IMG/VR virus record: IMGVR_UViG_3300032246_000393
Coordinates: 3,329 to 67,328 of that record
Length of the DNA: 64,000 nt
Source: a virus
Strand: one strand, 5' to 3'
Positions 2,715 through 25,834 of this stretch are shown one piece after another (the first letter of the stretch is position 1; every line of letters begins with the position of its first letter). The position numbers and the translations under genes were made by a program. The notes beneath the pieces are model-generated. The model did not search any database. It was not told where the DNA came from and saw nothing but the letters and a program-made list of their open reading frames with translations.

Positions 2715-2716
2715 GA

Positions 2717-5377: not shown

Positions 5378-5404
5378 GGCGCACCGTGAGAACGGGGATG
5401 CCAG

Positions 5405-5432
5405 AATTTAACACAAGTATCCAGAAAAGCAA
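5405..5432 (-). promoter_or_regulatory. putative promoter of terS-terL-portal operon
   Basis: On - strand TTGCTT-N16-TAAATT, spacer ending CTTGTGT as in the 24387 promoter. Confidence 0.5.
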
Positions 5433-5690
5433 GGGGTACTAACTGCACTGGGCAAAACAAAGTATCTCCGCTCCACTTTACCTAAGCTTTCCCCCCGGTT
5501 TGATTTTACCGGATTTTGACGTTCAGTTTGTATAGACCACATTTATTTTTACTGGATTTCGACACTCAACCCTTTTGTAGGTTTCGTAGGTACCCCCCCC
5601 TTTTTTTACGGGATTTCGACGTTCCGCTTAACTCACTTTTTGTTCTAACTATTTGTTTTGTCACGTGTATGTAAATCGTACTGGAAAAAT

Positions 5691-5870
5691 ATAGGGGGTG
5701 GGGGGTTTGCAATTTGTTAAGTACCCGGGGGGTCTTGTCCGAAATGTGTATACGTTGTACTGACAAAATTTGCATAGGGGGTGGGGGTATTTTTAATTTG
5801 CGTAATCGTTTGTGCAGAATAGTGTGTAGTGGAGCGCCGGAGTCCCATGCTGAAATTTGGGTGGGTGGGT
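5691..5870 (+). other. G-tract cluster in the divergent intergenic region (possible terminus/packaging region)
   Basis: ATAGGGGG(G)TGGGGG at 5691 and 5774, GGGGGG at ~5727, GGGTGGGTGGG at ~5858. Confidence 0.4.
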
Positions 5871-5914
5871 GTCGCTAGCCTAACAATGTTAGGTTAATTT
5901 TGTTTCCGGCAAAT

Positions 5915-5943
5915 TTGAGTTAGCTATTATTTTGTGGTATAAT
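5915..5943 (+). promoter_or_regulatory. sigma70-type early promoter P1
   Basis: TTGAGT-N17-TATAAT with extended -10 TGTGG. Confidence 0.8.
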
Positions 5944-6021
5944 ATGCTCATACACATAAAAACCTATGTGTATCTGGGTTAGGCAGCACCTAACAATGTT
6001 AGATTAAAAGGACTAACAGTT

Positions 6022-6567
6022 ATGACAATCAATCAAATAGTCGGCGCGGTATCATCATTAGTTGCTGCAGCGCGTGAGCAGGCAGCGGAAGCGGCGGGGC
6101 GTTCGTACGGTGCTGAGCGTGAGTATGCAAAGGCGTTAAATGATGCGTTCGGTGATCTGAGCATTGCATGGTTCACAGTCGAGCACAATGCCAAGGGCGC
6201 GGAGGCTGACTTAGTGCATGCTGAAAAGGCGCTGTACTTTAAGGCGTTGCATGCTAAACACCCTTCCGGTAAATACCCTAACCCTTCCGTACCTTGGGCG
6301 CGTGTACGCAAGTATGCACAAGAGGAACTCAAGGCGGCTTTCGATACTAACGAAGGCGAAGGCGGCGAAGGCGAAGGCGAGGGTGATTCAGTCGGCGCGA
6401 AGCATACTAGATCGTTGTCGTTGCGTATGACTGAGGAACTCACGTTGATCTGGAAAGCCGGACGCAAGGCCGAGAAGGACGGAACTATCCAAACCCGCGA
6501 AGCTGCAGCGTTGGTGCAAGTTGGTAATGCGTTGCAAGCATTAGGTCTGGACTTAGCAAGTCTGTAA
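6022..6567 (+). CDS. first early protein, unknown function
   Basis: 181 aa, own promoter, RBS AAAGGA, followed by two terminators; acidic EGEGGEGEGEGD linker. Confidence 0.8.
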   Translation: MTINQIVGAVSSLVAAAREQAAEAAGRSYGAEREYAKALNDAFGDLSIAWFTVEHNAKGAEADLVHAEKALYFKALHAKHPSGKYPNPSVPWARVRKYAQEELKAAFDTNEGEGGEGEGEGDSVGAKHTRSLSLRMTEELTLIWKAGRKAEKDGTIQTREAAALVQVGNALQALGLDLASL

Positions 6568-6585
6568 AATAACCTAGTTTCACTT

Positions 6586-6610
6586 AACCCGCCGCAAGGC
6601 GGGTTTTTTT
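6586..6610 (+). terminator. intrinsic terminator
   Basis: AACCCGCC-GCAA-GGCGGGTT followed by T-run. Confidence 0.85.
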
Positions 6611-6613
6611 ATT

Positions 6614-6647
6614 GCCCGCGCCTAACAATGTTAGGTCGGGCTTTTTT
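6614..6647 (+). terminator. second intrinsic terminator whose stem contains the palindrome
   Basis: GCCCG..CCTAAC-AAT-GTTAGG.CGGGC-TTTTTT. Confidence 0.7.
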
Positions 6648-6662
6648 GTTGCCTGAAAAACT

Positions 6663-6772
6663 ATGACCAACCAGTTCCCTATGCGGGCGTAGCCACATGA
6701 TGCCTAACAATGTTAGATCGAGCAATGTTACAAAATACCGATGACCAACCAGTTCCCTGTGCGGGCGTAGCC
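6663..6772. repeat. 32-bp direct repeat pair (1 mismatch) separated by 46 bp
   Basis: ATGACCAACCAGTTCCCTRTGCGGGCGTAGCC at 6663-6694 and 6741-6772. Confidence 0.9.
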
Positions 6773-7113
6773 TTTGTTATGCTTTTCCACTCTGTTACGT
6801 TTCAATGTTACGAAATTAAGGGCTTTGTTACGTTTTGTTTTCGCTAAGTCATTGATTTTACAGCAATGTTATATGTTACGTTTATTTTCGCAAGTGAGCA
6901 AGGCTAGAAAAGTTTGTTCGAGGTCATCGGCGAGTGCAATTCGCACCACAATAGAAAATCTGCAACCGCTTTATAATATATTTTTCACATAACATTATAA
7001 CATTACACAACTAAACTCTCTCAAAACGTAGCACCAGCGCGGCTTTTCGAATGTTACGTTTCCTGTTACAAATTGAACTTTTTAACGCTTTTTCCGTAAC
7101 AGCTTTTGTAACA
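6726..7113. other. putative replication origin (TGTTAC iteron-like repeats plus IHF consensus)
   Basis: TGTTAC at 6726, 6793, 6806, 6826, 6874, 7052, 7064; GTAACA at 7096, 7108; TAAGTCATTGATT at 6845-6857 matches WATCAANNNNTTR on - strand; AT-rich. Confidence 0.5.
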
Positions 7114-7129
7114 CAGCCACGACTAAAGG

Positions 7130-7158
7130 TTGACTTGGCTATAACTTTGTGGTATACT
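7130..7158 (+). promoter_or_regulatory. sigma70-type early promoter P2
   Basis: TTGACT-N17-TATACT, extended -10 TGTGG. Confidence 0.8.
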
Positions 7159-7260
7159 ATAAGTATAGTGGGAAAACGTAACAAAGCAACACACCCACGA
7201 CATCGTGCCTAACAATGTTAGGTGCAACAAACGTAACAAAGCCCATTAACAGGAGGGAAC

Positions 7261-7449
7261 ATGCAACGCGGACACATTGAGGTATCTAAGTTGTTCCAAG
7301 CCAACGGATACATCGTATCTATCTACTCAAACAAAACCGAGCTGTACAACTTTGTCGGTCAAGACGTGCAAGAGCTACTGCAGAAGGCGCAAGTCTGGGC
7401 AAACAACCAAGAGCTGCGCATCGTAGCAACCATGCAACTATTCAACTAA
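7261..7449 (+). CDS. hypothetical early protein
   Basis: RBS AGGAGG, first gene after P2. Confidence 0.7.
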   Translation: MQRGHIEVSKLFQANGYIVSIYSNKTELYNFVGQDVQELLQKAQVWANNQELRIVATMQLFN

Positions 7450-7459
7450 GAGGCTAACA

Positions 7460-7678
7460 ATGTTAGGTAACAACGAAGATGCACGTTATCTGTGCGTAGT
7501 ATGTGGCGGCTTCATTGACCATCAACGCTACCGACTCGGTTACAAGCTGTGCCTACCATGCGGTGAGGATGCAGCCAAACAAGTCAAGCACACAATCGCC
7601 CCGATAAACAAAAGCAACTACATGTATATCAGCGACTTATCACAACTGAAACAACTCAACCCCAAGAGGACAACATGA
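7460..7678 (+). CDS. DksA/TraR-type C4 zinc-finger protein
   Basis: CVVCGGFI...R.....LCLPC. Confidence 0.65.
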   Translation: MLGNNEDARYLCVVCGGFIDHQRYRLGYKLCLPCGEDAAKQVKHTIAPINKSNYMYISDLSQLKQLNPKRTT

Positions 7679-7902
7679 ACGAAGCACTACTAGATGAAAC
7701 ACTACGCCGGATGCAGTCCAAGCTATTCGCAACTAAGGACTCGATACCCGAAGCTATTCAGTACGCATACGACGTGATCGACTCGGGCGGTAGTAACAAA
7801 GCAGCTATGTACACAGTTGTGCATGTGCTAATGAACACAATCGCCGAGGAAGTCCGGCACATAACAATGTTAGGTGAGGGCGATGAAACAGGAGGTGAGT
7901 GA
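7675..7902 (+). CDS. hypothetical early protein
   Basis: ATGA coupling, RBS GAGGA. Confidence 0.7.
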   Translation: MNEALLDETLRRMQSKLFATKDSIPEAIQYAYDVIDSGGSNKAAMYTVVHVLMNTIAEEVRHITMLGEGDETGGE

Positions 7903-8036
7903 TGGAAAAGTTAACACCGAAGCAACTAGCCGAGGTGCTACCAATACTAAAGAAGCTGCGGCTGATGATGCAAGCCGACCCAGACTTGACGCTGCGCATC
8001 AAACATTTACTACGAGCACTTGAGGAGGATAGGTGA
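7902..8036 (+). CDS. small hypothetical protein (44 aa, below ORF-track cutoff)
   Basis: MEKLTPKQLAEVLPILKKL..., RBS GGAGGTG, coupled to both neighbours. Confidence 0.6.
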   Translation: MEKLTPKQLAEVLPILKKLRLMMQADPDLTLRIKHLLRALEEDR

Positions 8037-8320
8037 TGGAGAACCGAGACAGGCAGGGCAACTTACTTGCCTTTGCGAACGATTACCAAGAGGGCATGCA
8101 GTTGCGTGATTACTTTGCGGCTAAGGCATTACCCGCTTTGATGCCACGATACAGAGAGATGTTTGATTTAAATGTGTTCGAGGATTGGCATGATGATGTT
8201 TTACCTGAGATGGCACATGAATCGTACGCATTGGCTGATGCAATGTTGCAAGCAAGAGATGAGAAGTATGGTGTTTGGTTAAAACGTAGGATGGAAAAAT
8301 ACAGGGAGGAAAACAAATGA
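8033..8320 (+). CDS. conserved phage hypothetical protein
   Basis: GMxLRDYFAAKA...AY..ADAML.AR motif widespread in proteobacterial phages. Confidence 0.75.
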   Translation: MMENRDRQGNLLAFANDYQEGMQLRDYFAAKALPALMPRYREMFDLNVFEDWHDDVLPEMAHESYALADAMLQARDEKYGVWLKRRMEKYREENK

Positions 8321-8496
8321 AACCACGTAATCACGTAGCCCGAGCGCAACAGTCGGGAGCAGGTAAGCACAAGGACAAGAACGATACGGCTATGGAGCTA
8401 GCACTACGCCGAGCGTTTGAGGAAGCGAAAGATATTATGCGCGAGCGTAATGCAATGACAACACCTAACAATGTTAGGAGGGGGAAGCATGGATAA
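8317..8496 (+). CDS. small basic hypothetical protein (59 aa, below cutoff)
   Basis: MKPRNHVARAQQSGAGKHKDK..., RBS GGAGG, ATGA overlap. Confidence 0.6.
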   Translation: MKPRNHVARAQQSGAGKHKDKNDTAMELALRRAFEEAKDIMRERNAMTTPNNVRRGKHG

Positions 8497-8572
8497 GGAC
8501 GAGTTGCTGCTCTGGGCAATGGTAGTTATGGCTATATTCTTGGCGTATTTAGTAGCCTTTGAGGGGGTGTGA
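8489..8572 (+). CDS. 27-aa membrane peptide
   Basis: MDKDELLLWAMVVMAIFLAYLVAFEGV, RBS AGGAGG. Confidence 0.5.
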   Translation: MDKDELLLWAMVVMAIFLAYLVAFEGV

Positions 8573-8573
8573 T

Positions 8574-9611
8574 ATGAGCGGGTTTGCAACGATAGGCCGA
8601 CTTGAACGGCTGAGGGATTACCGAGAAGCGGAGTTGTTCTACAACAGCGTGACACCCATACGTGGCAGGGCTGAAGTAATCAAACCGCTAGGTGCGCGAC
8701 GTGATGCTGACAAGTACCAGATTGTTAAGGGTGGTAATGATGTGTTCGGTCACTTTTATGCGGCTAAGTTATACAACACATACGTCGTTAAGTTTAGGGA
8801 AGATGGCGAGATCGTAATCAATACAGGCGGGTATAACACAGCGTTGACCATGCAGTTTATTGCTGAGGTCTTAGGGATAGGTGCGAATAGACAACGAGGT
8901 AGTAATGTTTTCCGCATTAGCGGTGAGAACTACATCACCAAAGGCAACGACGAGCTACGCATAAAGCACATAGGCAACGGACAGTTTGACATCATCAGCG
9001 AGAACAAACACTTCCACTATGTGATTAACCGTAGCGGGGCTAACAATGTTAGGAAGCGTACCGCTGACTTCCGAGGTTACTTGAAGGGCTTCATATCCCT
9101 GCGTACACAGGAGGTTAAGAAGTATGGAAACGCCTACGAGATGGTGTGCGTACCGAGGACTGAGTTCGCCGAGATATTTGGTACACGAGTGGAAGAAGAT
9201 TGGAGTGGTAAGGAGATTTCCTTACTTAAGTCTGATCGCTTTCATTACCTGACGGACAAACGGCATAACTATACGAAGTTTATGGAGAACAGCCGAGCGT
9301 TAGACGCATTGGCAAGATCAAGTGACACGCAGGACTACTACATTGCAGCAATGATGCTGTGTGCGGGGGCATCGCATGAGACGTTCGTGAGACTAGACAC
9401 CAAAACAGAGGAGCACTTGCGAGTTATGCCGAGCGGCATCATCGAGACGTTCGACGAGTCACAGTTCAAGCTGTATGCAAGCGAGGTGCTGACGATGGTT
9501 GAGGTAGGTAAGGGCAAAGTGCCTAACACTAAGTACGACAGTTGGGCTGACCCAACGCCTAGTGATAACGAGTACAGCAGAGACAACGACACTTTAGTAA
9601 TCAAGGTGTGA
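8574..9611 (+). CDS. hypothetical early protein
   Basis: Long ORF; likely start ATG 8574 after GAGGGGG. Confidence 0.8.
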   Translation: MSGFATIGRLERLRDYREAELFYNSVTPIRGRAEVIKPLGARRDADKYQIVKGGNDVFGHFYAAKLYNTYVVKFREDGEIVINTGGYNTALTMQFIAEVLGIGANRQRGSNVFRISGENYITKGNDELRIKHIGNGQFDIISENKHFHYVINRSGANNVRKRTADFRGYLKGFISLRTQEVKKYGNAYEMVCVPRTEFAEIFGTRVEEDWSGKEISLLKSDRFHYLTDKRHNYTKFMENSRALDALARSSDTQDYYIAAMMLCAGASHETFVRLDTKTEEHLRVMPSGIIETFDESQFKLYASEVLTMVEVGKGKVPNTKYDSWADPTPSDNEYSRDNDTLVIKV

Positions 9612-9618
9612 CTAAAGG

Positions 9619-9647
9619 TTGAAGTTAGTATAACAATGTGGTATAAT
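9619..9647 (+). promoter_or_regulatory. sigma70-type early promoter P3
   Basis: TTGAAG-N17-TATAAT, extended -10; context homologous to P2. Confidence 0.8.
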
Positions 9648-9741
9648 ATAATAGTGGGAATTCAACCACTAACAACGCCGCCTAACAATGTTAGGTATAA
9701 CAACGTAGTGCAAACAAGTCCATTAACAGAAGGAGCTAACA

Positions 9742-10806
9742 ATGGCTGAAGTAACTTTCGGTAAGACAATTTCCCTAGATCAAGCTGTCTCTTTGATCGT
9801 GAGTAACCCTGAACTTAGGTTCATGTTACGTGGCGAGCCGGGGATAGGTAAGAGTTGGATGCTAGAGGTTATCGCTTCAAAGCTAGGCTATGGTCACGCA
9901 TACATTGACGTGCCTAACTTAGACTTGGGCGACATCGCAATGCCAGTCATCAACCACGAGACAAAGACTACCCACTACTACCCTAACGCTAGGTTCGGAC
10001 TGCATGACGGTAAGCCTATGGTCATTATGCTTGACGAGTTCAGTAAGGGAGCCGACCCAGTAAAGCACATGCTGCATCCGATGCTAGAGAAAGCTAACCC
10101 GCGACTCGGTGACATACCGATACCTAACAAAACCATAGTCTTTATGACAGGTAACTTAGCTACTGACGGCGTAGGCGATACGCTGAAGGCACACACTCGC
10201 AATCGTATCGTGGAGGTACACGTGCAGAAACCTAATGCAGACCAATGGGTAGCGTGGGCTATTGAGAATGACGTAGAGGCTGAGGTCATTGCGTGGGTAT
10301 CACGCTATCCGCACGTATTGGCTAGCTATACCGACCCTGCGCAATCAGAGAATCCGTACATCTTTAACCCAAAGCGTGCACAAGCTGCGTTCGTATCACC
10401 ACGTTCGTTGGTAACAGCATCTAACATTGTTAGGACACGTTCGCAGAACCATCCTGATGCAATCATCGCTGCGTTGACTGGTGCTATTGGCGAGAGTGGT
10501 TCGCGTGACATGCAAGCGTACATCGAGTTCTCGGATCAGTTGCCGACATGGGAGCAGACTATTGAGCACCCTATGACTACGAAGATACCCACAGACCCAG
10601 GGGCTTGCGCAATCATTGTGTTCGGTGCAATCGCACGTATCACTAAGGAGAACATCACACCGTTCATGCAATACCTCGCACGAATGGATGCCGAGTGGCA
10701 AGCCGCGTTCGTAATCAATACAGCTAAGTCAGAAACTAAACAACAAATTGCATTTACGTGCAAAGCGTTTAGCGACTGGGTTGCTAAGAACATGGACATC
10801 ATTTGA
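9742..10806 (+). CDS. MoxR/dynein-related AAA+ ATPase
   Basis: Walker A GEPGIGKS, Walker B IMLDEF, TGN sensor, NR finger, SPRS. Confidence 0.88.
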   Translation: MAEVTFGKTISLDQAVSLIVSNPELRFMLRGEPGIGKSWMLEVIASKLGYGHAYIDVPNLDLGDIAMPVINHETKTTHYYPNARFGLHDGKPMVIMLDEFSKGADPVKHMLHPMLEKANPRLGDIPIPNKTIVFMTGNLATDGVGDTLKAHTRNRIVEVHVQKPNADQWVAWAIENDVEAEVIAWVSRYPHVLASYTDPAQSENPYIFNPKRAQAAFVSPRSLVTASNIVRTRSQNHPDAIIAALTGAIGESGSRDMQAYIEFSDQLPTWEQTIEHPMTTKIPTDPGACAIIVFGAIARITKENITPFMQYLARMDAEWQAAFVINTAKSETKQQIAFTCKAFSDWVAKNMDII

Positions 10807-10821
10807 TAGGGGAGCCTAACA

Positions 10822-11031
10822 ATGTTAGAGCATGTGTACTACTGGGCGTGGCGTGAGGAGGACAACCCACAGAGTTACGCCACACCTGATGACAAGAAGC
10901 TGTATCGAGTCTTTAGAGCATCGAAGAGTAGTACTCGGGGTATACCTTTAACTGAGACTATGAGTAGGGAAGAAGCAAAACAGAAGTGCGAAGAGATAGT
11001 TAAATTAACTCAAGGGAAGGAAATTAAATGA
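10822..11031 (+). CDS. small hypothetical protein (putative paralog family A)
   Basis: RBS GGAG, start codon inside palindrome; YRV...LTETMSREEA...IVKL. Confidence 0.65.
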   Translation: MLEHVYYWAWREEDNPQSYATPDDKKLYRVFRASKSSTRGIPLTETMSREEAKQKCEEIVKLTQGKEIK

Positions 11032-12224
11032 GCGAAGAACGCCGTTTGCAGAAGGCCAAGATCAGCCTAATGCGTAGTGAAAGGTTCGCGTTGTTTAGCG
11101 GCATCCTAATGGTTGGGCGTACGTCAGTAGACGATAACGTGCCGACTGCATGTACCAACGGGCGCGACGAGCGGTATGGTCGTGAGTTCGTTAAGAAGTT
11201 GAGAGACCCCGAGCTTGCGTTTGTTGTGATGCACGAGGGCATGCACAAGTGTTATCGACACCTAACTACGTGGCGCAAGCTATACGAGGAGGATAAGGTG
11301 TTAGCTAATGCTGCATGTGACCACGTGATTAACCTACAACTACGTGACCTTGACCCCGAGGAGAAGATCATAGCGATGCCGAGGTATCGGGATGGTGAGA
11401 AGAAGGGTGAGTTCATGGGCTTGATTGACGAGCAGTATCGTGGCATGAACGCCAAGCAAGTGTTCGACCTACTAAAGCAGAAGTATGGGCGTGGAGGTGG
11501 TGGCGGTGGTGAGAACTTTGATGAGCACGATTGGGATGGAGCCAAAGAACTTACCGAAGAAGAGAAGAAGAAACTCGAACGCGACATTGACGTTGCTGTG
11601 AGGCAAGGACTAATGACGCACGAGAAAATGGTAGGGAAGGGAACTGGTGGGATTTCTCGGGAACTTGAGCAATTGCTCGAACCAAAAATTGATTGGCGTG
11701 AGGTGTTGCGTGAGTTCGTTAAATCTACGTGCCGAGCAAGAGACACGTCATCATGGCGTAGACCGAACCGGCGCTATCTGGCTACGGATACGTACATGCC
11801 TAGCATGATCGGGCAGCGCGTTGGACACTTGGTTATTGCTATCGACACATCAGGTTCGATTGGTGGTGACGAGTTGGCTGAGTTCTTATCCGAGGTGAAA
11901 GGTATTGCCGAAGAAGTTAATCCTGAGAAGGTTGACTTGCTGTACTGGGGCACGAGTGTTGAAGGGCATGAGGAGTATAGCGATGCGGACGTGGCTAACA
12001 TTGTTAGTTCAACCAAGCCAATTGGTGGAGGTGGTACTGCACCTAGCTGTATTTCAGAATACATAGCCGAGAACAAGATCGACCCCGAGTGCATCATCGT
12101 GCTGACTGATGGGTATGTTGGTGACGATTGGGGTAGTGAGTGGAACGCGCCGTTGCTGTGGGTGATTACTGGAGGTAACAAAGTAATGGCTGCACATGGC
12201 AAGACTATTCATGTGGAGAAGTGA
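11028..12224 (+). CDS. DUF2201-like metallopeptidase plus VWA domain protein
   Basis: HEGMH zincin, N.A.D..IN, MIDAS DTSGS, GGGGT, LTDG. Confidence 0.88.
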   Translation: MSEERRLQKAKISLMRSERFALFSGILMVGRTSVDDNVPTACTNGRDERYGREFVKKLRDPELAFVVMHEGMHKCYRHLTTWRKLYEEDKVLANAACDHVINLQLRDLDPEEKIIAMPRYRDGEKKGEFMGLIDEQYRGMNAKQVFDLLKQKYGRGGGGGGENFDEHDWDGAKELTEEEKKKLERDIDVAVRQGLMTHEKMVGKGTGGISRELEQLLEPKIDWREVLREFVKSTCRARDTSSWRRPNRRYLATDTYMPSMIGQRVGHLVIAIDTSGSIGGDELAEFLSEVKGIAEEVNPEKVDLLYWGTSVEGHEEYSDADVANIVSSTKPIGGGGTAPSCISEYIAENKIDPECIIVLTDGYVGDDWGSEWNAPLLWVITGGNKVMAAHGKTIHVEK

Positions 12225-12433
12225 TGGGCAAAGTTAAGGTAGGAGGTATTCATACGATGAGGCAGCGACTTGCTGAAGCGTACGAACGTCAATCCAAGAT
12301 CACGTATTACCGCATCGAGGACATTGACGGTACGTTCATGATAGCAACTACGCCTAATAGAGGTATCGTCAAGACTAACTTAACCGAAGCCGAGTGCAAC
12401 GCATGGATGCGCATACTTATGGGGGGTGAATAA
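12221..12433 (+). CDS. small hypothetical protein (putative paralog family A)
   Basis: YYRIE...VKTNLTEAECNAWMRIL. Confidence 0.65.
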   Translation: MMGKVKVGGIHTMRQRLAEAYERQSKITYYRIEDIDGTFMIATTPNRGIVKTNLTEAECNAWMRILMGGE

Positions 12434-12690
12434 TGGCAATAATAACCCTACAGCAAATGAAACAGGCTGCGTTAGCTATTCTGAACCAAAGTTTTGCTCA
12501 GAGTTACCCGCCGACTATTGAGTATCACGCTAGGCGTACCGATGATAACCCGAAGGTATGGAAGGTGGTGGAGCTAACAATGTTAGGTAAAGAAGTAGTA
12601 AATATGAAGGAGCTTGCGACTGACTTGAAACGTAACCGAGCAGAAGCATTAGTAAGACTGTTACGTAATAACCAGAAAGATGGGAGCTAA
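12433..12690 (+). CDS. small hypothetical protein (putative paralog family A)
   Basis: WKVVE...LATDLKRNRAEALVRLL. Confidence 0.65.
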   Translation: MAIITLQQMKQAALAILNQSFAQSYPPTIEYHARRTDDNPKVWKVVELTMLGKEVVNMKELATDLKRNRAEALVRLLRNNQKDGS

Positions 12691-12692
12691 TT

Positions 12693-13547
12693 ATGAGCAT
12701 AGCAGCTAGCGCAGTATTGGTTGAGCTAAACATTTCCGTTTGGCCTGCAAAGAAAGTAGATCGTGAGACAACGGATCGTGTCAATGCTAACGCATCGGCA
12801 GTACATGACGCATCGCAGACCAAGAAGAATTTGTTTGCGGGTACGAGCATGCGTAGTGACATCGAGAAGTTCGCCGCACGTGTTCGTTTATTCCACAACC
12901 AACACACATTACCGTGGGCTGACAAAGGTGAGCGACTGTTACCAACTAAGTTGTTCATGGACTACAAGCAAACGATGGATGGGTTCGAGCGTACGTTCGA
13001 GATCATGTGCGACAACTTCTTTACTGCATACCCTACGTTAGTACAACAAGCACAGGGCAGTTTAGGTGCTATGTATAAAGCCGACGACTATCCTGATATT
13101 GACGAAGTACGAGGGAAGTTCGGGTTCAGACGTGCGACCAACCCACTACCAGAGGCGGGAGACTTCCGACTGGACGTAGGCAACGATGCACTAGAGGAGA
13201 TAAAGCAGGAGTATGCGCGTAAGTTTGATGAGCGATTAGCTGACGCTATGCGTTCGCCGTGGGAGAGACTGCATAAAATTCTCGCAGACATGAGTGCCAA
13301 GCTGACCGACAAGGAAGGCGAGGATGGTAAGAAGCGTTACCACGATACTCTGATTACTAACGCACAGGAAATGTGCGACTTGCTGACTAAGTTAAACATT
13401 ACCAACGATCCGAAGCTAGAGCAAGCACGTAAGTCATTGGAGCTAACAATGTTAGGTGTAGATATTGCCGACATCAAAGAAAGCCCAGTAGTACGTAGCG
13501 ATGTGAAGAACAAGGTCGATGACATTCTTAAACGCTTTGATTGGTAA
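12693..13547 (+). CDS. DUF3150-like protein
   Basis: AVLV.LNIS.W...K.D, TLPW...G.RLLP, DYP....VR.KF; usual neighbour of AAA/VWA pairs. Confidence 0.65.
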   Translation: MSIAASAVLVELNISVWPAKKVDRETTDRVNANASAVHDASQTKKNLFAGTSMRSDIEKFAARVRLFHNQHTLPWADKGERLLPTKLFMDYKQTMDGFERTFEIMCDNFFTAYPTLVQQAQGSLGAMYKADDYPDIDEVRGKFGFRRATNPLPEAGDFRLDVGNDALEEIKQEYARKFDERLADAMRSPWERLHKILADMSAKLTDKEGEDGKKRYHDTLITNAQEMCDLLTKLNITNDPKLEQARKSLELTMLGVDIADIKESPVVRSDVKNKVDDILKRFDW

Positions 13548-13556
13548 GGGGGAAGT

Positions 13557-13925
13557 ATGGGATACCGAAGTGATGTAGCTGCTGTGTTCTATGCAAAAAA
13601 CATAGAGGACATGCCAGTAATAAAGCTGTGGCTAGAAGAGAACTTCCCTATAGATACGTTTGCACAGAGTATACGGTGGTTCGCTAAGGGTATGGTGTTT
13701 AACGAAGAGAATGTTAAATGGTACGACAACTACCCTGAAGTTATGGCGTTCGAAGAAGCAAGGGATAAATTCATAGACTTGTTCTGTGATGACAAAGAAG
13801 GCGCGGTTGTAGGTGCGTTCGAGTTCATACGTGTAGGTGAGCAGTACGACGATGTTGAAACCGATTATAGAGGTGACTATGACTGTTTACTTGAGTGTAA
13901 TCGTTCGATAAGTGTATCCGCATGA
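13557..13925 (+). CDS. conserved phage hypothetical protein
   Basis: MGYRSDV, VKWY, FIRVGE.YDDVE motifs. Confidence 0.75.
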   Translation: MGYRSDVAAVFYAKNIEDMPVIKLWLEENFPIDTFAQSIRWFAKGMVFNEENVKWYDNYPEVMAFEEARDKFIDLFCDDKEGAVVGAFEFIRVGEQYDDVETDYRGDYDCLLECNRSISVSA

Positions 13926-14188
13926 GGCTAAGTCAACTAACAAGTAGGAAGTGGGCAGTTATGAAGCCAAGAGGATGGAGTCAAGGAAAACAACTTGCTC
14001 GTATTGCCAATTCATTCATAGCACAAGGCAGACTCTACAACGTCAAGAAACATTCGGCGCGTAGTAAATACAGGGGGTATTACATCGTTGAGTTGAAAGG
14101 ATCATTATTAAGTAGAGAGTTCAAGGTAGCCAAGAACCTAACAAAAAAACAAGCAGTAGCGTGGATAAAACTATTGAAGGGGTTGTAA
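13922..14188 (+). CDS. small basic hypothetical protein (putative paralog family A)
   Basis: YYIVE...VAKNLTKKQAVAWIKLL. Confidence 0.65.
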   Translation: MRLSQLTSRKWAVMKPRGWSQGKQLARIANSFIAQGRLYNVKKHSARSKYRGYYIVELKGSLLSREFKVAKNLTKKQAVAWIKLLKGL

Positions 14189-15054
14189 TGAACAACATAG
14201 CAAAACTATCGAACGTGAAGTACAGCGAGAAGTTTGACGAACATAGAAGAGCTAACGTACCCATAGACTCGCCGAGTCTATTACATAGCGTTGTGTGGGA
14301 GCTTGCTACTAGGAACCCACAGTGGGTTTTCTATGTGAACGCAGGGATCAAGACAGGCCGAGACATATTCAGGGCTGAAGCGTTCGATGTGAAACTAGAC
14401 GATGAGATTATCGGTTCGCTGCATCACGTGTATTACCGAGGCGACTACTGCGTGGGTGTATCTAACCAACGTATCGGTAAGATGATGGATCACGGAACCA
14501 TGACGCGCACTAAAGATATATCTAAGGCACTACAGGTAGCTAGGAAACATTTCAGTAAACGTAATCAGACTGAGGTAGTTGATGAGGCACACAAACAAGC
14601 TAAGGACTACTTAGCTAATGTGAACTTCACCCATGACCGCAAGCTACGAGATGCTAAGGAACCGTTCGATGTACTAGCCAAAGAGTTTGCGTATGAAGCA
14701 GGGATGGATGTGTTCAAGGCTTATCTAAATACAAAAGTAAATGGTGGTCAATTGCTACATAACCTTGAGCAAATGTTTAACATCTGGGCAGAAAAACACA
14801 TAGTTGAGCAGGTTCAGAAACAATTCAGGGTGGGTATGGCTTGCGTTGTGGTATTAAATGGTGGTACATATATCGTTAGGAACCAAGCAAACGAGGTAAT
14901 CAGTAGGTATACCGATGAGGACTTACCTGAGTTCATGCGTATGAGGATTGGTTTGCTAAAGCTAGTACGTGAGGGGCAAGTGGTGAATAACGTAGGGTTC
15001 CGAGCTAGTGATACGACATTCATAGTACTTACGAATCGGGAGGAGACATGTTAG
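14188..15054 (+). CDS. hypothetical protein
   Basis: TAATG-coupled start; C-terminal LPE.....IGLLKLV..GQ....VGFR motif. Confidence 0.8.
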   Translation: MNNIAKLSNVKYSEKFDEHRRANVPIDSPSLLHSVVWELATRNPQWVFYVNAGIKTGRDIFRAEAFDVKLDDEIIGSLHHVYYRGDYCVGVSNQRIGKMMDHGTMTRTKDISKALQVARKHFSKRNQTEVVDEAHKQAKDYLANVNFTHDRKLRDAKEPFDVLAKEFAYEAGMDVFKAYLNTKVNGGQLLHNLEQMFNIWAEKHIVEQVQKQFRVGMACVVVLNGGTYIVRNQANEVISRYTDEDLPEFMRMRIGLLKLVREGQVVNNVGFRASDTTFIVLTNREETC

Positions 15055-15230
15055 TAGACGGTAAATTTTTTAAGGAAGAGCCGCCAAAAATAGGGGCAAA
15101 TTGGATACCTAAGTACAAGGACGATCTGATTACCCCAGAGGAACGGATTGTTCAGGATGCGTTGCTAGGTGTACGTAGCCCTGAGTTCTCAGTATTTGCA
15201 CGAGTGTTTGGAAAAATTTTAAAAATCTAG
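15048..15230 (+). CDS. hypothetical protein
   Basis: RBS GGAGGAG; PPKIG..W motif. Confidence 0.65.
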   Translation: MLVDGKFFKEEPPKIGANWIPKYKDDLITPEERIVQDALLGVRSPEFSVFARVFGKILKI

Positions 15231-15239
15231 GGAGGAAGC

Positions 15240-15440
15240 ATGGACATACTACCGCACAGAGAATACATCAAAAAATTCTTGGCGCAGCAAGAGCCTTTGA
15301 TTGGGCGCATTGAAGCTATCACTACCAACGAAGGTGCGCACATTGATTTAAATAACATGAACGACGAAGAAGCAAGGATTGCCGCCGAGTACTTCATGTT
15401 GTTGGGCGTGCCCACGTTCGAAGGCAAAGCGGGGAAATGA
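15240..15440 (+). CDS. hypothetical protein
   Basis: RBS GGAGG. Confidence 0.65.
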   Translation: MDILPHREYIKKFLAQQEPLIGRIEAITTNEGAHIDLNNMNDEEARIAAEYFMLLGVPTFEGKAGK

Positions 15441-15553
15441 TGGAGACATATTCTTTTCTTACGTTTATAGGCGGCATACTTGTGGGTATGGGTGTAGCTG
15501 TACTACTAACCGTTTTAGCTATGGTTATATGGAGCAGACGTGATGGAGGATAA
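15437..15553 (+). CDS. 38-aa membrane peptide
   Basis: MMETYSFLTFIGGILVGMGVAVLLTVLAMVIWSRR; ATGA coupling. Confidence 0.5.
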   Translation: MMETYSFLTFIGGILVGMGVAVLLTVLAMVIWSRRDGG

Positions 15554-15713
15554 AAAGTTTTGCACTTCATGTCAGATGCACAAGCCAGTCGAAGGAGGTA
15601 TGGTGCAAAGGACAAAGACAACTAGGTGGAAGTGTAAAGGTTGTCTTACCAAGAAAGCCCCTAGCATTTATACAAAAGTAATGAAGGAGGCTTTGTATGA
15701 CCACAGGGATTGA
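15543..15713 (+). CDS. 56-aa zinc-ribbon protein (below cutoff)
   Basis: KFCTSCQ...RWKCKGC. Confidence 0.6.
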   Translation: MEDKKFCTSCQMHKPVEGGMVQRTKTTRWKCKGCLTKKAPSIYTKVMKEALYDHRD

Positions 15714-15897
15714 AGAACTAAAGGTAATAAAAAAACGGAAAGGGCGGGGCGTAGGCAAGAAACCCGCACTATTCTGTACGAGCTTGCGACTGCCAAAGGA
15801 TGTGATGAATTACTTTAACCAACACTTCCCATACACGAAGCAAGCGAAGATGAGGGAAATTCTTGCCGACTATGTAAAACAACAAGGAGCTAATTAG
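15697..15897 (+). CDS. ribbon-helix-helix (BrnA-like) DNA-binding protein
   Basis: Basic arm RKGRGVGKKP then TSLRLPKDVMNYF...QAKMREIL..YV. Confidence 0.6.
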   Translation: MTTGIEELKVIKKRKGRGVGKKPALFCTSLRLPKDVMNYFNQHFPYTKQAKMREILADYVKQQGAN

Positions 15898-15899
15898 CT

Positions 15900-16421
15900 A
15901 TGGAAACAAAGAAGAAAGTAGGTAGGCCAAAAGGTAGTAAAAATAAAGTATCACGCGCAAAGCGTATGGCGGCTAAAGTAAAACATACTAAGGCTGAGCT
16001 TATCCGTAAGTACGCAACCACATTCCCTAACGCAAGGCCATCAGAAATTGCTAGATACTATGGGTATACACGTCAGTACGTTATCCAAGTGTTATGGGCA
16101 TGGCGTAAGAAGAACGCGGGTATTACTCCTGCTAAGTATGTGCACGAAGTAACTACGGATGAAATGAAAGCGCACATGAACGAACACATAGAACTGCACA
16201 AGGAAATAACTAAAGATATGGTTAACAACCCGCCGCACTATACACAGGGTGGGATTGAGACTATTGATTTCATTGAAGCTAAAGCGTTGTCTTACAACTT
16301 GGGTAATGTAGTTAAATACATTACACGTGCCGATCACAAGGGCAACAAGGTTGAGGACTTAATGAAAGCACGTTGGTATCTTGACCGAGAGATTACTAAT
16401 TTAACACCGCCGTTAGCCTAA
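15900..16421 (+). CDS. AT-hook/HTH plus DUF3310 (SaV-like) protein
   Basis: GRPKGSKNK; PSEIARYYGYTRQYV; VNNPPHYT.G.IETID, GNVVKY, EDL.KARWYL. Confidence 0.8.
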   Translation: METKKKVGRPKGSKNKVSRAKRMAAKVKHTKAELIRKYATTFPNARPSEIARYYGYTRQYVIQVLWAWRKKNAGITPAKYVHEVTTDEMKAHMNEHIELHKEITKDMVNNPPHYTQGGIETIDFIEAKALSYNLGNVVKYITRADHKGNKVEDLMKARWYLDREITNLTPPLA

Positions 16422-16441
16422 CATTGTTAGGTGCAACGTCG

Positions 16442-16465
16442 AGCCGCCTTAGGGCGGCTTTTTTA
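16442..16465 (+). terminator. intrinsic terminator
   Basis: AGCCGCC-TTAG-GGCGGCT-TTTTT. Confidence 0.85.
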
Positions 16466-16480
16466 TTTTCTGAAACACTC

Positions 16481-16508
16481 TTGACAAAGTACAGTCTTAT
16501 GTTATATT
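16481..16508 (+). promoter_or_regulatory. promoter of replication genes
   Basis: TTGACA-N16-TATATT. Confidence 0.7.
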
Positions 16509-16541
16509 TGTGATGTGCTTTGATACGTTAGGAGTATACGC

Positions 16542-16856
16542 ATGGCAGCAACCCCAGAAGCGAAAGTTAAGAAGAAGGTTGTTGACATACTTAAAGGTCA
16601 TGGGGTGTATTACTTTTTCCCCGCGACACATGGATACGGCAGGTCAGGTGTACCCGACATAGTGTGTTGTATTAACGGTAGATTCGCAGCCTTTGAAATT
16701 AAAGCTGGTAACAATCAACCGACTGCATTACAGGAGAGGGAGATACGTTTGATACAAGAGACTAAGGGTATAGCCGCAGTCATAAGAGAAACCAACATTG
16801 ACTTGGTGACTACAATCGTTAAGGAGCTAACGCATGCCAAAGAAGGAGATAGTTAG
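16542..16856 (+). CDS. VRR-NUC (PD-(D/E)XK) nuclease, putative Holliday junction resolvase
   Basis: E..VK, GVPD, FEIKA, PTALQ. Confidence 0.88.
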   Translation: MAATPEAKVKKKVVDILKGHGVYYFFPATHGYGRSGVPDIVCCINGRFAAFEIKAGNNQPTALQEREIRLIQETKGIAAVIRETNIDLVTTIVKELTHAKEGDS

Positions 16857-17112
16857 GTATCACCCTTGTGAAGCAGTGATGCTACTAATGCAGCGCATGG
16901 AGTCAAACCCCGAAGAGTTTAGGTTAGACACCGGCAAGTGGGCGAACCTACTTGCACATATCAAGAAGCGTGTAGTGGACAAAAACGCCGATGCTTTTAT
17001 TATCTTAGATGACTTTGAAGCTGAGATGGTGTGGAATAAATTTAAAGCAGCGGGTAAAAGAGAACTACATACATTCGTAATGCAAAAAATATTAGAAGGG
17101 AATGAGAAATGA
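16834..17112 (+). CDS. hypothetical protein (paralog pair B)
   Basis: LL.RMESNPEEF....GKW. Confidence 0.7.
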   Translation: MPKKEIVRYHPCEAVMLLMQRMESNPEEFRLDTGKWANLLAHIKKRVVDKNADAFIILDDFEAEMVWNKFKAAGKRELHTFVMQKILEGNEK

Positions 17113-17570
17113 GCGATGAATTTTGCGCGGGGGTACAGATACTACTAAAGCGGTTGGAGACTAACCCTGAAGAGTTTAAGGAAGAACATGGTAAATGGTC
17201 GAGTATACGCAACGCTGTGTTTGAGTACAAGGAACGTGGTGAGCGCGGCGCATGGCTGCGTGGGTTAAAAGAGCCAGAGATAGATGCGTTGTATGAAAAG
17301 TTCAGCGCACTTCATAGAGGTGTGATCGACGAGTGGGTGATGAAGCAAGTGCTAGCTGAGCCAGAAGAAGAGCTTAAATACAGAGCTACAGAGAGATACG
17401 CGCATAGTTGGAATGACCCACGTATGCTGCAAAACGCTGTACCCGCCGGAAGCTTTGTTACTGTGGGTGGTAGTGGAGGTGGAGGTAGTGGGGGCGTGTT
17501 GATACAAAACAGTACGCAAGCTAAACCCGAGTCCGTTATGAGCAAAATTAAAAGAGAGCTTGGTCTGTGA
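17109..17570 (+). CDS. hypothetical protein (paralog pair B)
   Basis: LLKRLETNPEEF....GKW. Confidence 0.7.
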   Translation: MSDEFCAGVQILLKRLETNPEEFKEEHGKWSSIRNAVFEYKERGERGAWLRGLKEPEIDALYEKFSALHRGVIDEWVMKQVLAEPEEELKYRATERYAHSWNDPRMLQNAVPAGSFVTVGGSGGGGSGGVLIQNSTQAKPESVMSKIKRELGL

Positions 17571-19387
17571 AAATAATCACAATAGATTTTGAGACGTACT
17601 ACGACAAGGACTTCAGCCTAAGCAAGCTGACTACTGAGGAATACGTACGTGATGAGAAGTTTGAAGTTATCGGCGTAGGAGTTAAAGATGGTGACAATGA
17701 ATCGGTCTGGTGTAGCGGCACGAACGAAGAGATCAAGGCTTTCTTGGATTCTTATGAGCTTCAAGAACATCTTGTTCTCGCCCATAACGTTATCTTTGAT
17801 GCTGCTATTCTTACTTGGCACTTTGGTATTAGCCCTCGCGGGTGGCTTGACACGCTTAGCATGGCACGTGCTATCCATACTACCGAAGTGGGAGGTTCCC
17901 TTGCGGCCTTGGCACAGTACTACGGAGTCGGGGAGAAAGGAACCGAAGTTGTTGCCGCTCTCGGAAAGCGTCGAGCCGACTTCACCAAGCAAGAGTTAGC
18001 AGACTACGGTGGCTATTGCTGTAACGACTGCGACCTTACGTATGACATTTTCCAACTTATGTCCAACCAGTTCCCTAAGAAGGAACTTAGGTTAATTGAT
18101 CTGACGATCAGGATGTTTTCGGAGCCGGTGCTGCGTTTAAACGTGCAGGCTTTGCGTGGGCATTTAGTTTCCGTACAGACAAAGAAAACTAATTTGATGT
18201 TGAAAGTTCACATCGAGCGCGATCAGTTGATGAGCAATGAAAAACTAGCAACGACCCTAACAATGTTAGGTGTGGTTCCCCCTCGTAAGGTTAGCCCAAC
18301 TACAGGTAAAGAGACGTGGGCATTTGCTAAGAACGATGAAGAGTTTAAGGCTTTGCTTGAGCACCACGACCCTGACGTTCAAGCTCTGGTCGCGGCCCGA
18401 CTCGGAGTTAAGTCTACGTTAGAAGAGACTAGGACTGAGCGGTTCATCAGTATTGGGCAGCGGGGGGCTTTGCCAGTGCCACTACGTTACTACGCTGCAC
18501 ACACAGGACGTTGGGGTGGCGACGATAAACTGAACTTACAAAACTTACCACGAGCATCTCCGTTGAAGTACTGCATCGTAGCACCAGCAGGTTACATGCT
18601 TGTGGATTCTGACTCATCCCAAATCGAAGCACGTACGCTAGCTTGGCTTGCAGGGCAGAATGATCTGGTATCAGCCTTTGAAAGGGGTGAAGATGTTTAC
18701 AAAATTATGGCCTCAGCCATCTATGGCAAACCAGAAGCGTCGATTACGAAGGACGAGAGGTTCGTTGGTAAGACAACGATTCTGGGCGCAGGGTACGGCA
18801 TGGGCGCGGCCAAGTTTCAAGCGCAACTTAAAACATTTGGCGTGCAAACTCCGTTGGATGAGTGCAAACGCATTATTGAGGTCTACCGCAGGACTTACCC
18901 GCGTATCCCCGAACTTTGGAAAGAAGCTGCAAAGAGTCTTGAAGCTGTGGAGCGTAACGCGTCGACTACGCTAGGCCGAGACGGAATACTGAAAGTTGAA
19001 GGAGCAAAGGGCATCAGGCTTCCGAACGGCTTGTATATTAAATACCCTAACCTGCGTACACAGAATGTTGATGGCAAAGCCGAGATGGTCTACGACGTGA
19101 AGAAAGGTAGAGCACTTATACCCAACCGCATCTATGGCGGTAAGGTTGTGGAGAATGTATGCCAAGCATTAGCGCGAATCATAATTGGTGAGCAGATGCT
19201 AGTAGTAGCGAAGAAGTATAAGGTTGCGATGACGGTGCACGATGCTATCTGTTGCGTGATTCCTGAAGCTGAAGCGCAAACAGGTAAAGAGTTCGTTGAG
19301 ATGTGTATGCGTATTCGACCCGATTGGTGTTTAGAACTCCCATTAAATTGTGAAGCCGGTGTTTCTGATACGTACGGAGGTTGTTGA
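17567..19387 (+). CDS. polA: family A DNA polymerase with 3'-5' exonuclease
   Basis: Exo DFET, HN..FD; HTGRW, NLQNLP; motif A DSSQIEAR; motif B K...LG..YG; motif C VHD. Confidence 0.93.
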   Translation: MKIITIDFETYYDKDFSLSKLTTEEYVRDEKFEVIGVGVKDGDNESVWCSGTNEEIKAFLDSYELQEHLVLAHNVIFDAAILTWHFGISPRGWLDTLSMARAIHTTEVGGSLAALAQYYGVGEKGTEVVAALGKRRADFTKQELADYGGYCCNDCDLTYDIFQLMSNQFPKKELRLIDLTIRMFSEPVLRLNVQALRGHLVSVQTKKTNLMLKVHIERDQLMSNEKLATTLTMLGVVPPRKVSPTTGKETWAFAKNDEEFKALLEHHDPDVQALVAARLGVKSTLEETRTERFISIGQRGALPVPLRYYAAHTGRWGGDDKLNLQNLPRASPLKYCIVAPAGYMLVDSDSSQIEARTLAWLAGQNDLVSAFERGEDVYKIMASAIYGKPEASITKDERFVGKTTILGAGYGMGAAKFQAQLKTFGVQTPLDECKRIIEVYRRTYPRIPELWKEAAKSLEAVERNASTTLGRDGILKVEGAKGIRLPNGLYIKYPNLRTQNVDGKAEMVYDVKKGRALIPNRIYGGKVVENVCQALARIIIGEQMLVVAKKYKVAMTVHDAICCVIPEAEAQTGKEFVEMCMRIRPDWCLELPLNCEAGVSDTYGGC

Positions 19388-25833: not shown

Positions 25834-25834
25834 T

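Follow-up and report, generated by a model that had tools for sequence, protein, structure and literature searches.

We analyzed a 64,000-nucleotide stretch of a phage genome (hereafter the window; bases 3329-67328 of the 67,328-bp IMG/VR record IMGVR_UViG_3300032246_000393) in which a 13-bp palindrome, CTAACAWTGTTAG, is dispersed along a single 12-kb domain. We propose, with a probability of roughly one half, that these palindromes are bound as duplex DNA by a symmetric dimer that the phage encodes, the most likely candidate being the product of the open reading frame (ORF) at 6022-6567 (ORF 6022), which would control the early arm of the genome. Comparison with related sequences establishes the sites as a network of cis elements with high confidence, and ORF 6022 is assigned as the candidate binder with moderate confidence.

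Palindromes confined to one domain of the early arm

A scan for the 13-mer with at most one mismatch returned 17 copies between 5880 and 18269, comprising 16 exact copies and one copy with a single mismatch, ATAACAATGTTAG, that starts at 7861 (sites are named by their first base; Table 1). The central base is A in 14 of the sites and T in 3 (10421, 11995 and 16418). A note made earlier from the sequence alone (the original prediction) had claimed this count, the confinement and the split of the central base, all of which were borne out, and its description of the spacing, dense at the left end, then 400-1200 bp and tapering past 13.4 kb, agrees with the site coordinates. Dinucleotide-preserving shuffles (n = 100) contained 0.20 copies on average and 2 at most, and none of the 100 reached 17. 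Beyond 5880-18269 no exact copy was found in the entire 67,328-bp record, to which the 3.3 kb outside the window contributes none, and the reversed-pattern control gave 0; the whole record thus holds the same 16 exact copies and no others. The only two copies with two mismatches in the window lie at 52795 and 61976, and no such copy occurs inside the domain, so the sites are all-or-nothing. In duplex form and with its flanks, as a target for a candidate binder, the 13-mer reads CTAACAATGTTAG.

By our gene calls, non-coding sequence makes up about 10% of 5880-18270, yet 8 of the 17 sites are intergenic or on a start codon, and one more lies on a stop codon. The translations confirmed the gene readings given originally: sites 7861, 12574, 13443 and 18257 encode I/LTMLG, sites 8465, 9040, 10421 and 11995 encode xN(N/I)V(R/S), and the ATG of the motif is the start codon of ORFs 7460 and 10822. 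The claim that the palindrome is encoded into genes in all three frames held for two sense frames, the only ones readable through the motif because the third contains TAA and TAG; that third frame is used once, with the TAA serving as the stop of ORF 15900-16421.

Related sites in uncultured relatives and selection on the DNA

Relatives were taken as the best 80 of 273 IMG/VR contigs encoding a related ATPase (70-86% identity). Nearly all 80 loci carry the same arms in many copies, with variants. The main forms are CTAACA-n-TGTTAG and the corresponding -nn- sites, with -nnn- in L081; arm variants are compensatory (TGACAnnTGTCA in L066 and ATAACAnnTGTTAT in L082), a further variant, CTAACnnnGTTAG, occurs in L019, and two site classes are mixed in L011, L041 and L062. 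Within a genome, the sites alter their center spacing (1, 2 or 3 nt) and sometimes their arms together. L061 interleaves TAACAnTGTTA and TGACAnnTGTCA sites, and the flanks of the two types also differ. Five complete relatives (62-66 kb) have 11-19 sites each in one 10-18 kb stretch (16 of the 18 in G002 are listed), and the reversed-pattern control gave 0 in all five. One contiguous domain, as claimed for the window, was therefore found in these five genomes as well. Looking among relatives for an equivalent regional palindrome and a co-varying protein, as had been suggested, yielded the palindrome in nearly all 80 loci and a family, that of ORF 6022, which tracks the sites (see below). The suggestion that the domain marks first-injected DNA or staged injection was not supported, as the domain lies 5-22 kb from the record ends in relatives, ends that may differ from the physical genome ends.

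Sites with unique context lie outside genes in 476 of 760 cases (63%), against 17% of background positions, a 3.7-fold enrichment. In line with the reading frames, 13-mers are often intragenic (225, with 189 outside genes) and 14-mers rarely so (47, with 265 outside).

Several comparisons point to constraint on the DNA itself. Between the window and L005, L009, L014 and L058, orthologous sites are perfect within flanks of about 70-76% identity. The close relative L006 has 14-bp sites, and there the intergenic orthologues of sites 5880, 7209, 9682 and 16418 carry an extra central base, as does a degenerate copy at site 5990; the intragenic sites 10421, 11995, 12574 and 13443, where one added base would break the frame, have decayed. 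Because the intergenic sites of L006 changed in concert, a specific trans factor is implied. The ATPase site 10421 is kept in 34 of 38 loci of the 13-bp type, 8 of 29 of the 14-bp type and 0 of 6 motif-less loci; the corresponding counts are 34/37, 0/28 and 3/6 for site 11995 in the VWA gene, and 27/35, 0/28 and 0/6 for site 13443 in ORF 12693. In 22 loci the peptide ASNIVRT is specified by codons that do not form the site. Since this peptide is unchanged without the site and retention follows the site class of the genome, the constraint lies on the nucleotides, and its dependence on site class is what co-evolution with a diffusible reader predicts. The original proposal of selection on DNA rather than protein was upheld on both counts, the site-free peptide and the retention of intragenic sites with the matching spacing class.

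The ORF 6022 family tracks the sites

All plus-strand ORFs of the loci were clustered, and every cluster was tested against site presence. A hidden Markov model (HMM) of the ORF 6022 family was searched in six frames against the 39 loci that extend 6.1 kb or more beyond the upstream end of the ATPase gene (41 loci with less upstream sequence were left out). At least four sites and a family match occur together in 34 of the 39 loci, L052 has 4 sites and no match, and L018, L036, L037 and L074 have at most 2 sites each and no match; a family match with few sites was seen in 0 of 39. The ORF 6022 cluster showed the strongest association of all clusters (34/0/0/5 at a 5-site threshold; Fisher 1.7e-6, uncorrected for phylogeny). 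On the ATPase tree the motif-poor loci, of which L036 and L037 are identical, occupy three or four separate positions. L044 (12 sites) and L052 (4 sites) have near-identical ATPases and differ in that exactly the segment with the ORF 6022 gene and its flanking sites is replaced in L052 by a cluster-96 gene (see below). The family divides into subfamily A, with 20 of 21 rows from 13-bp genomes, and subfamily B, with 18 of 19 rows from 14-bp or mixed genomes. In a proteome-wide comparison of one complete and one partial motif-less genome with three motif-rich genomes, the same presence/absence pattern was found only for the lysozyme (46436-46915) and its neighbor.

The arrangement around the gene is shared by nearly all relatives, of both subfamilies: a G-rich tract, a site, an A/T-rich tract, a -35 element with a TG-extended -10 element and a conserved 5′ hairpin, often a second site (+40 to +66), then a ribosome binding site, the gene, a GC-rich hairpin and directly another site. 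The family gene is bracketed by sites in nearly all relatives, and of 30 unique promoter contexts, 7 have a leader site between +40 and +66 and 3 more have one between +98 and +116. The GC-rich hairpin (...GGGGAAACCCC...) directly 3′ of ORF 6022 homologues, for example in L005, L016, L038 and L050, has a co-varying outer stem and no T-run and precedes a site and then the Shine-Dalgarno (SD) sequence and ATG of the next gene; it could be a factor-dependent attenuator. In L061, the ATCTGACAAATGTCAGAT and ACCTAACAATGTTAGGT classes, which differ in arms, spacing and flanks, are interleaved on one early arm (1979-15601) along with two hybrid sites (TGACAAATGTTA), and the lone ORF 6022-family gene of this locus is bracketed by TGACA-type sites. 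L085 has neither a family gene nor sites.

Among the binders put forward originally, ORF 6022 tracks the sites, and ORF 15697 (ribbon-helix-helix, RHH), ORF 15900 and the 25820/25835 ORF (helix-turn-helix, HTH) do not. ORF 15697 occurs in the motif-less L018 and L024, is as conserved as the ATPase and keeps its beta-strand TSLRLP unchanged in CTAACA, TGACA (L066) and ATAACA (L082) genomes. The Xre-HTH ORF 25820-26074 occurs in the motif-less G006 at 56% identity, and ORF 15900 (in G006), the zinc-finger ORF 7460 and ORF 8559 likewise occur in motif-less genomes. Cluster 29 (163 amino acids), to which a class I/II Fisher screen pointed, is also present in motif-less loci and at variable positions. 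Changes of site-class label on gene trees were not discriminating, numbering 2-6 for 11 of 12 families and 13 for a Hjc-like ORF.

In motif-poor relatives ORF 6022 is replaced by a gene of cluster 96 (about 170 amino acids; 174 in L052), present as two tandem paralogues in L036/L037. In the 4.6-10.5 kb downstream, the L018 and L036 lineages have 0-1 sites and the L052/L020 lineage has 4-5. The cluster-96 gene is adjoined by other palindromes, (T/C)AGGGTTTACCCT(A/G), GGGTTAACCC and TTTACAnTGTAAA, in 1-4 copies, one of which abuts a -35 element. A scan for GGGTn1-4ACCC was unspecific, and only GGGTT[TA]ACCC (1-4 copies) was particular to cluster-96 loci. Together with its palindromes, cluster 96 has the appearance of an exchangeable cassette of regulator and operators. 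It showed no homology to ORF 6022 (hhalign probability 15%).

Predicted structure of the ORF 6022 protein

The family has at least 401 members in a metagenomic protein collection, all unnamed or annotated as hypothetical. AlphaFold2, run on a 33-row alignment, gave a mean predicted local distance difference test (pLDDT) score of 80.9 and a fold of four helices (residues 3-108), a disordered acidic linker (110-126) and a confident helical hairpin (132-173). Prediction with two copies scored 0.77, with the best of 3 controls at 0.00, agreement between runs on at least 80% of contacts and a partner pLDDT of at least 77; this mark was reached by 20 of 30 solved one-chain pairs and 1 of 23 solved single chains, counts that hold only roughly because an alignment of our own was used here. 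The protein is therefore predicted to be a helical homodimer, and a flexible linker between two dimerizing parts might account for spacings of 1-3 bp being tolerated. W50, W92, R94, V95, R/K96, R18 and Y35 are among the conserved residues. The nearest named clusters in an atlas were DUF3102 (0.82) and Streptomyces phage repressor c (0.81), both below the trusted 0.9 and without support from Pfam.

A possible mechanism

The divergent switch from the late to the early arm is exactly where the site domain starts. The domain occupies the units of three predicted sigma-70-like promoters, P1-P3, and the replication unit of the fourth, P4, has one site (18257); at 3 of these 4 promoters a site is centered at +34 to +50. 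Under the proposed mechanism, host RNA polymerase would start at P1 and make the ORF 6022 protein, whose dimer would bind the sites bracketing its own gene, resulting in autoregulation, and 14 further sites across the P1-P3 units (5.9-16.4 kb), located at +34 to +50 of promoters, at gene junctions and inside genes. The bound sites would block or throttle transcription of the early arm by host polymerase, and the replication unit from P4 on, with its one site, would be largely exempt. Since the genome is tightly packed, the sites would have been fitted into SD-to-ATG spacers, with the motif's ATG reused, and into coding sequence by codon choice.

The regulatory outcome that we infer and favor is repression or a roadblock, in line with the roadblock silencing suggested originally. 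An activator role does not fit because many sites lie between SD and ATG; a MotA-like activator or promoter was rejected on this ground and because no -10-like signal lies at a fixed distance downstream. DNA looping around P1 was also rejected, as the bracketing sites are 110-148 bp apart in 8 loci and have no common helical phase.

Counterevidence and alternative readings

Several observations weigh against ORF 6022 being a reader of duplex sites, and they are taken here together with the readings that they would favor. Among unique sites bearing an ATG, 193 of 463 start an ORF of at least 45 amino acids, and 133 of these 193 have an SD-like sequence just upstream; the baseline for all ATGs (n = 24,979) is 3,884 (15.5%) and 1,965 (7.9%), respectively. 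Copies flanked by C...G fold as RNA at -5.5 to -8.3 kcal/mol, the hairpin with site 3 at its apex folds at -18.2 kcal/mol (z -5.15) with an outer stem that co-varies in L005, and centers of 1-3 nt are loop lengths easy for a hairpin. The palindrome might thus be an RNA hairpin in early mRNAs, with AUG in the loop and 3′ stem, that serves as the operator of a translational repressor or endoribonuclease; T4 RegA/RegB and MS2 coat protein are examples of such systems. We consider this distinctly improbable. The bare motif forms a weak 5-bp hairpin (-2.6 to -3.0 kcal/mol), and the arms are conserved base for base and not just as pairs. The center of the 13-mer is W (A or T) in 408 of 413 cases (A 218, T 190), and weak flank preferences (A-2, C-1 / G+1, T+2) are themselves symmetric. 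Intergenic centers are A 133 : T 54 and AA 180 : TT 38 before start-codon sites are filtered out, and A 79 : T 52 (p 0.48) and AA 70 : TT 33 (p 0.11) against composition afterwards; intragenic centers are T 119 : A 101. Of 214 one-mismatch variants, 189 are transversions, mainly at the outermost and innermost arm positions, and those giving G·U number 12 in sense and 13 in antisense, indicating neither wobble tolerance nor asymmetry. In addition, 19 of 30 unique promoter contexts have a conserved site between -59 and -112, upstream of P1 and so beyond the reach of the sense transcript. A duplex site with a symmetric reader is favored because centers and flanks are symmetric, G·U bias is absent and a site lies upstream of P1; because 193 of 463 sites fall on start codons and flanked copies fold, a secondary RNA-level effect may still operate at some sites. 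The palindromes also look similar to N4 virion-polymerase promoters, which have a 5-bp stem and a 3-nt loop, and the genes follow a loosely N4-like order (AAA ATPase, VWA, PolA, helicase, primase, giant reverse-strand ORF), but hairpin-type or short promoters for a phage RNA polymerase are a very remote prospect. No RNA polymerase was found among the ORFs scanned with Pfam and PHROG, searches that divergent polymerases could escape, and the giant ORF matches 9sfn_G and DarB-like PHROGs. The sites are strand-symmetric, with no conserved initiation region downstream, sigma-70-like promoters with extended -10 elements are present, and a transcript starting at many of the sites would lose its ribosome site because these lie between SD and ATG.

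The remaining counterevidence concerns the protein and its association with the sites. ORF 6022 has no Pfam, PHROG or PDB match; Pfam searches of 33 of 33 family members at E up to 1 gave scattered chance-level matches only, Foldseek had no match at E 0.001 or better, and the best VIA-align Z, 7.2, was to generic helical bundles; none of these searches revealed a DNA-binding domain or fold. With a net charge of 0 in the window protein and a family mean of +1.2, the N-terminal domain is about neutral rather than basic, a mild argument against direct DNA binding. Independent contrasts of gene against sites number 3 (4 with unsupported branches), all concordant (sign test p 0.25), and the 2-3 contrasts of subfamily against spacing include one that is concordant and one with no difference; L006 (subfamily A, 14-bp sites) and L077 (subfamily B, 13-bp sites) are exceptions to the spacing rule. 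L020 and L052 retain 4-5 perfect sites without the ORF 6022 gene, although by our arithmetic neutral decay would leave about that many relics, since at about 12% divergence from L044 a 13-mer survives by chance with a probability of about 0.2-0.45. The mixed loci L011, L061 and L062 (two spacings; two arm types in L061) each contain a single family member. Many of the arm's small ORFs are also unassigned, and the duplex sites could instead belong to another phage protein, or to a host regulator of host-varying specificity, with ORF 6022 co-travelling with the cassette; we hold this to be unlikely, though it comes closest among the alternatives. No other ORF cluster of the loci matches the pattern and, proteome-wide, only the lysis cassette does, the obvious DNA binders (15697, 25820 and 15900) do not track the sites, and the L044/L052 swap takes just the ORF 6022 gene and flanking sites. 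Less probable again is that the same protein and sites are architectural, with dimers bridging, condensing or coating the early arm for nuclease protection or for organizing replication or packaging. This would suit the fairly even spacing (about 400-1200 bp) in one domain in the window and five relatives, the selection on intragenic sites, which a pure promoter-operator role does not need, and the predicted two-domain dimer with its flexible acidic linker. It sits poorly with the enrichment outside genes and the promoter-proximal and gene-junction positions, with the Pfam/PHROG scans, in which no ParA/ParB, MatP or SMC-like partner appeared, and with the lack of a common helical phase around P1. 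The boldest form of the ORF 6022 proposal is that it represents a new class of sequence-specific DNA-binding dimer, with neither HTH nor RHH, that reads half-sites at 1-3 bp spacing and organizes the 12-kb early domain of a virulent phage as a roadblock or bridge, perhaps acting also on mRNA via about 1/3 of intergenic start codons; taken as a whole, we regard it as quite unlikely.

Comparison with known systems

By analogy, the closest known kind of system is the operator/stoperator network of Cluster A mycobacteriophage repressors. Repressors of the L5 gp71 type are described with more than 20 13-mer sites in promoters and short intergenic spaces, and these stoperators are proposed to stop initiation and elongation; the sites are asymmetric, monomer-bound, oriented with transcription and genome-wide (PMC9283540). 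The 17 13-mers reported here are similarly enriched outside genes and just downstream of promoters, but they are perfect palindromes, strand-symmetric, unoriented and confined to about 12 kb. Unlike in L5, 37% of the family's sites are intragenic and many double as start codons, and no HTH or stoperator domain was found in the ORF 6022 family (Pfam, 33 of 33 members; fold matches at best to generic helical bundles). A further difference from L5-type phages is that the ORFs scanned yielded no integrase or CI-type repressor.

Looser parallels may be drawn with KorB/KorA, matS/MatP and the phiC31 repeats. The KorB operator OB occurs 12 times on plasmid RK2. The KorB-OB/KorA-OA systems of RK2 (IncP) are described as short palindromic operators at several places that are bound by a dimeric global repressor acting at a distance (PMC11790492). 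Short palindromic operators at several places on one replicon are common to both cases; KorB is a ParB-family cytidine triphosphate-dependent sliding clamp, whereas no ORF scanned here had a ParB-like Pfam or PHROG match, and the replicon here is a phage with sites in one arm only. E. coli matS is also a dispersed 13-bp palindrome that defines one contiguous domain and is dimer-bound (by MatP), a likeness drawn in the original prediction. Membership in this system was not supported: the matS site GTGACRNYGTCAC (the consensus given there) differs from CTAACAWTGTTAG, the scale is 12 kb against about 800 kb, the sites here are tied to promoters and gene junctions, and MatP gave no Pfam match in ORF 6022 or 33 relatives at E up to 1. 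In the fold comparison, MatP was not listed among the 50 best VIA rows. In the temperate phage phiC31, repressor c is associated with 17-bp inverted repeats that are highly conserved and occur in many intergenic positions, some of them around its own gene. The present sites resemble them in being conserved inverted repeats at many intergenic places and around the candidate regulator gene, but PF25746 matched 0 of 33 family members at E up to 1, and the atlas score was only 0.81.

Genome context and additional features

The nearest cultured phages are remote, with PolA 35-38% identical to that of the Rhizobium RHph_TM and Pseudomonas KPP25/phiR18 phages, and neither the DNA of the region nor the proteins of ORF 6022 and the ATPase matched any cultured phage. 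Two contigs of bacterial metagenome-assembled genomes (labelled Polaromonas and Anaerolinea) encode the ATPase at 44-45% identity, which is too weak for a host call. The plus-strand arm (5.9-29 kb) encodes small early ORFs, ATPase, VWA, PolA, an exonuclease, a SNF2 helicase and a DUF927 primase; besides portal and large terminase, the minus strand encodes tail and virion proteins, lysozyme, SU10-type adaptors and a 2,892-residue internal virion protein. In this giant ORF (29219-37897, minus strand), residues 987-1145 match the solved internal virion protein 9sfn_G, the C-terminal 700-800 residues match DarB-like antirestriction PHROGs, and a weak HATPase_c-like stretch spans 1209-1285. Two 2-oxoglutarate-Fe(II) oxygenase-like genes lie on the minus strand at 2717-3262, between portal and terminase, and at 48504-49175; the former has no counterpart in the genomes of the five relatives compared.

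Table 1. Sites, genes and predicted signals (window coordinates unless a locus is named).
Feature	Position	Strand	Remarks
Site 1	5880..5892	unstranded	about 64 bp upstream of start of first early promoter
Site 2	5990..6002	unstranded	5′ leader of ORF 6022, 20 nt ahead of ATG
Site 3	6622-6634		apex of second terminator-like hairpin
Site 4	6704..6716	unstranded	intergenic, between two 24-nt direct repeats
Site 5	7209..7221	unstranded	about +50 of P2, 40 nt ahead of ORF 7261
Site 6	7454..7466	unstranded	ATG starts ORF 7460; SD aagagg directly upstream
Site 7	7861..7873	unstranded	ATAACAATGTTAG, one mismatch; 3′ end of ORF 7675-7902
Site 8	8465..8477	unstranded	3′ end of ORF 8317-8496
Site 9	9040..9052	unstranded	within ORF 8559-9611; also in L005 and L009
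Site 10	9682..9694	unstranded	about +34 of P3, 47 nt ahead of ATPase gene; 14-mer at same spot in L006
Site 11	10421..10433	unstranded	within AAA ATPase gene (SNIVR)
Site 12	10816..10828	unstranded	ATG starts ORF 10822
Site 13	11995..12007	unstranded	within VWA/DUF2201 gene
Site 14	12574..12586	unstranded	within ORF 12433-12690; position empty in L005, L006 and L009
Site 15	13443..13455	unstranded	within ORF 12693-13547
Site 16	16418..16430	unstranded	on TAA stop of ORF 15900-16421, just ahead of terminator 16441-16460 and P4
Site 17	18257..18269	unstranded	within PolA gene; sole site of P4 (replication) unit
ORF 6022	6022..6567	+	181 amino acids; first early-arm gene; candidate palindrome binder
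P1	5915..5943	+	putative, sigma-70-like TTGAGT-17-TATAAT, TG extension; would drive ORF 6022; consensus match
P2	7130..7158	+	putative, sigma-70-like TTGACT-17-TATACT, TG
P3	9619..9647	+	putative, sigma-70-like TTGAAG-17-TATAAT, TG
P4	16481-16508		putative, sigma-70-like, TG-extended -10
Intrinsic-terminator-like hairpin	6586..6605	+	after ORF 6022
Second terminator-like hairpin	6614..6647	+	site 3 at apex, then T-run
Terminator-like hairpin	16441-16460		
Portal	207-2714	minus	
Large terminase	3259-4794	minus	
AAA ATPase	9742-10806	plus	
VWA/DUF2201 protein	11028-12224	plus	
PolA	17567-19387	plus	
Cluster 96 genes	L036 4475-4984 and 5536-6045; L052 5721-6245; L018 4324-5049; L020 253-771		

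Other elements were noted close to the sites. Just upstream of site 1, GGAGTCCC and TTTGGGTGGGTGGGTG elements (5839-5870) are present in most relatives and could be part of a leftward late promoter or a packaging/end signal. A hairpin (ATACACATA...TATGTGTAT) lies at 5950-5974, at the 5′ end of the predicted P1 transcript, and relatives have an equivalent hairpin (catgcaaac...gattgcat) of other sequence at the same position. Site 4 is flanked by a 24-nt direct repeat, CCAGTTCCCT(A/G)TGCGGGCGTAGCC, at 6671-6694 and 6749-6772, within a 690-bp non-coding stretch downstream of ORF 6022. Relatives, among them the motif-less L018, L020, L036 and L052, have very similar repeats in this position, which may act as an origin, as a small RNA or as a promoter used by some other factor. 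ORF 7460 (7460-7678, 72 amino acids), whose start codon is inside site 6, has a CxxC...CxxC zinc-ribbon pattern and no Pfam or PHROG match, and its family occurs in most relatives, motif-less ones included. An Rfam search of 5300-9800 gave no match at gathering score, and the weak matches were terminators.

Significance

Dispersed networks of sites for a single regulator are known from a few temperate phages and plasmids. We found no published description of the present one in a limited search that covered literature on dispersed palindromes of phage early regions and on phiC31 repeats, together with sequence look-ups. If the proposal is correct, such a network would operate in an apparently virulent, abundant and wholly uncultured lineage of freshwater phages. 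It would be unusual in that its palindromes are perfect and all-or-nothing, in that they have been accommodated in coding sequence and start codons through the choice of codons, and in that the candidate binder comes from a metagenomic family of at least 401 members that has no annotation, domain or known fold. The relatives provide a natural specificity series: their sites differ in spacing (13, 14 and 15 bp) and in arms (TAACA, TGACA and ATAACA), and the alternative first gene comes with palindromes of its own. Such a series would make both protein-DNA recognition and early-to-middle switching directly testable without the host.

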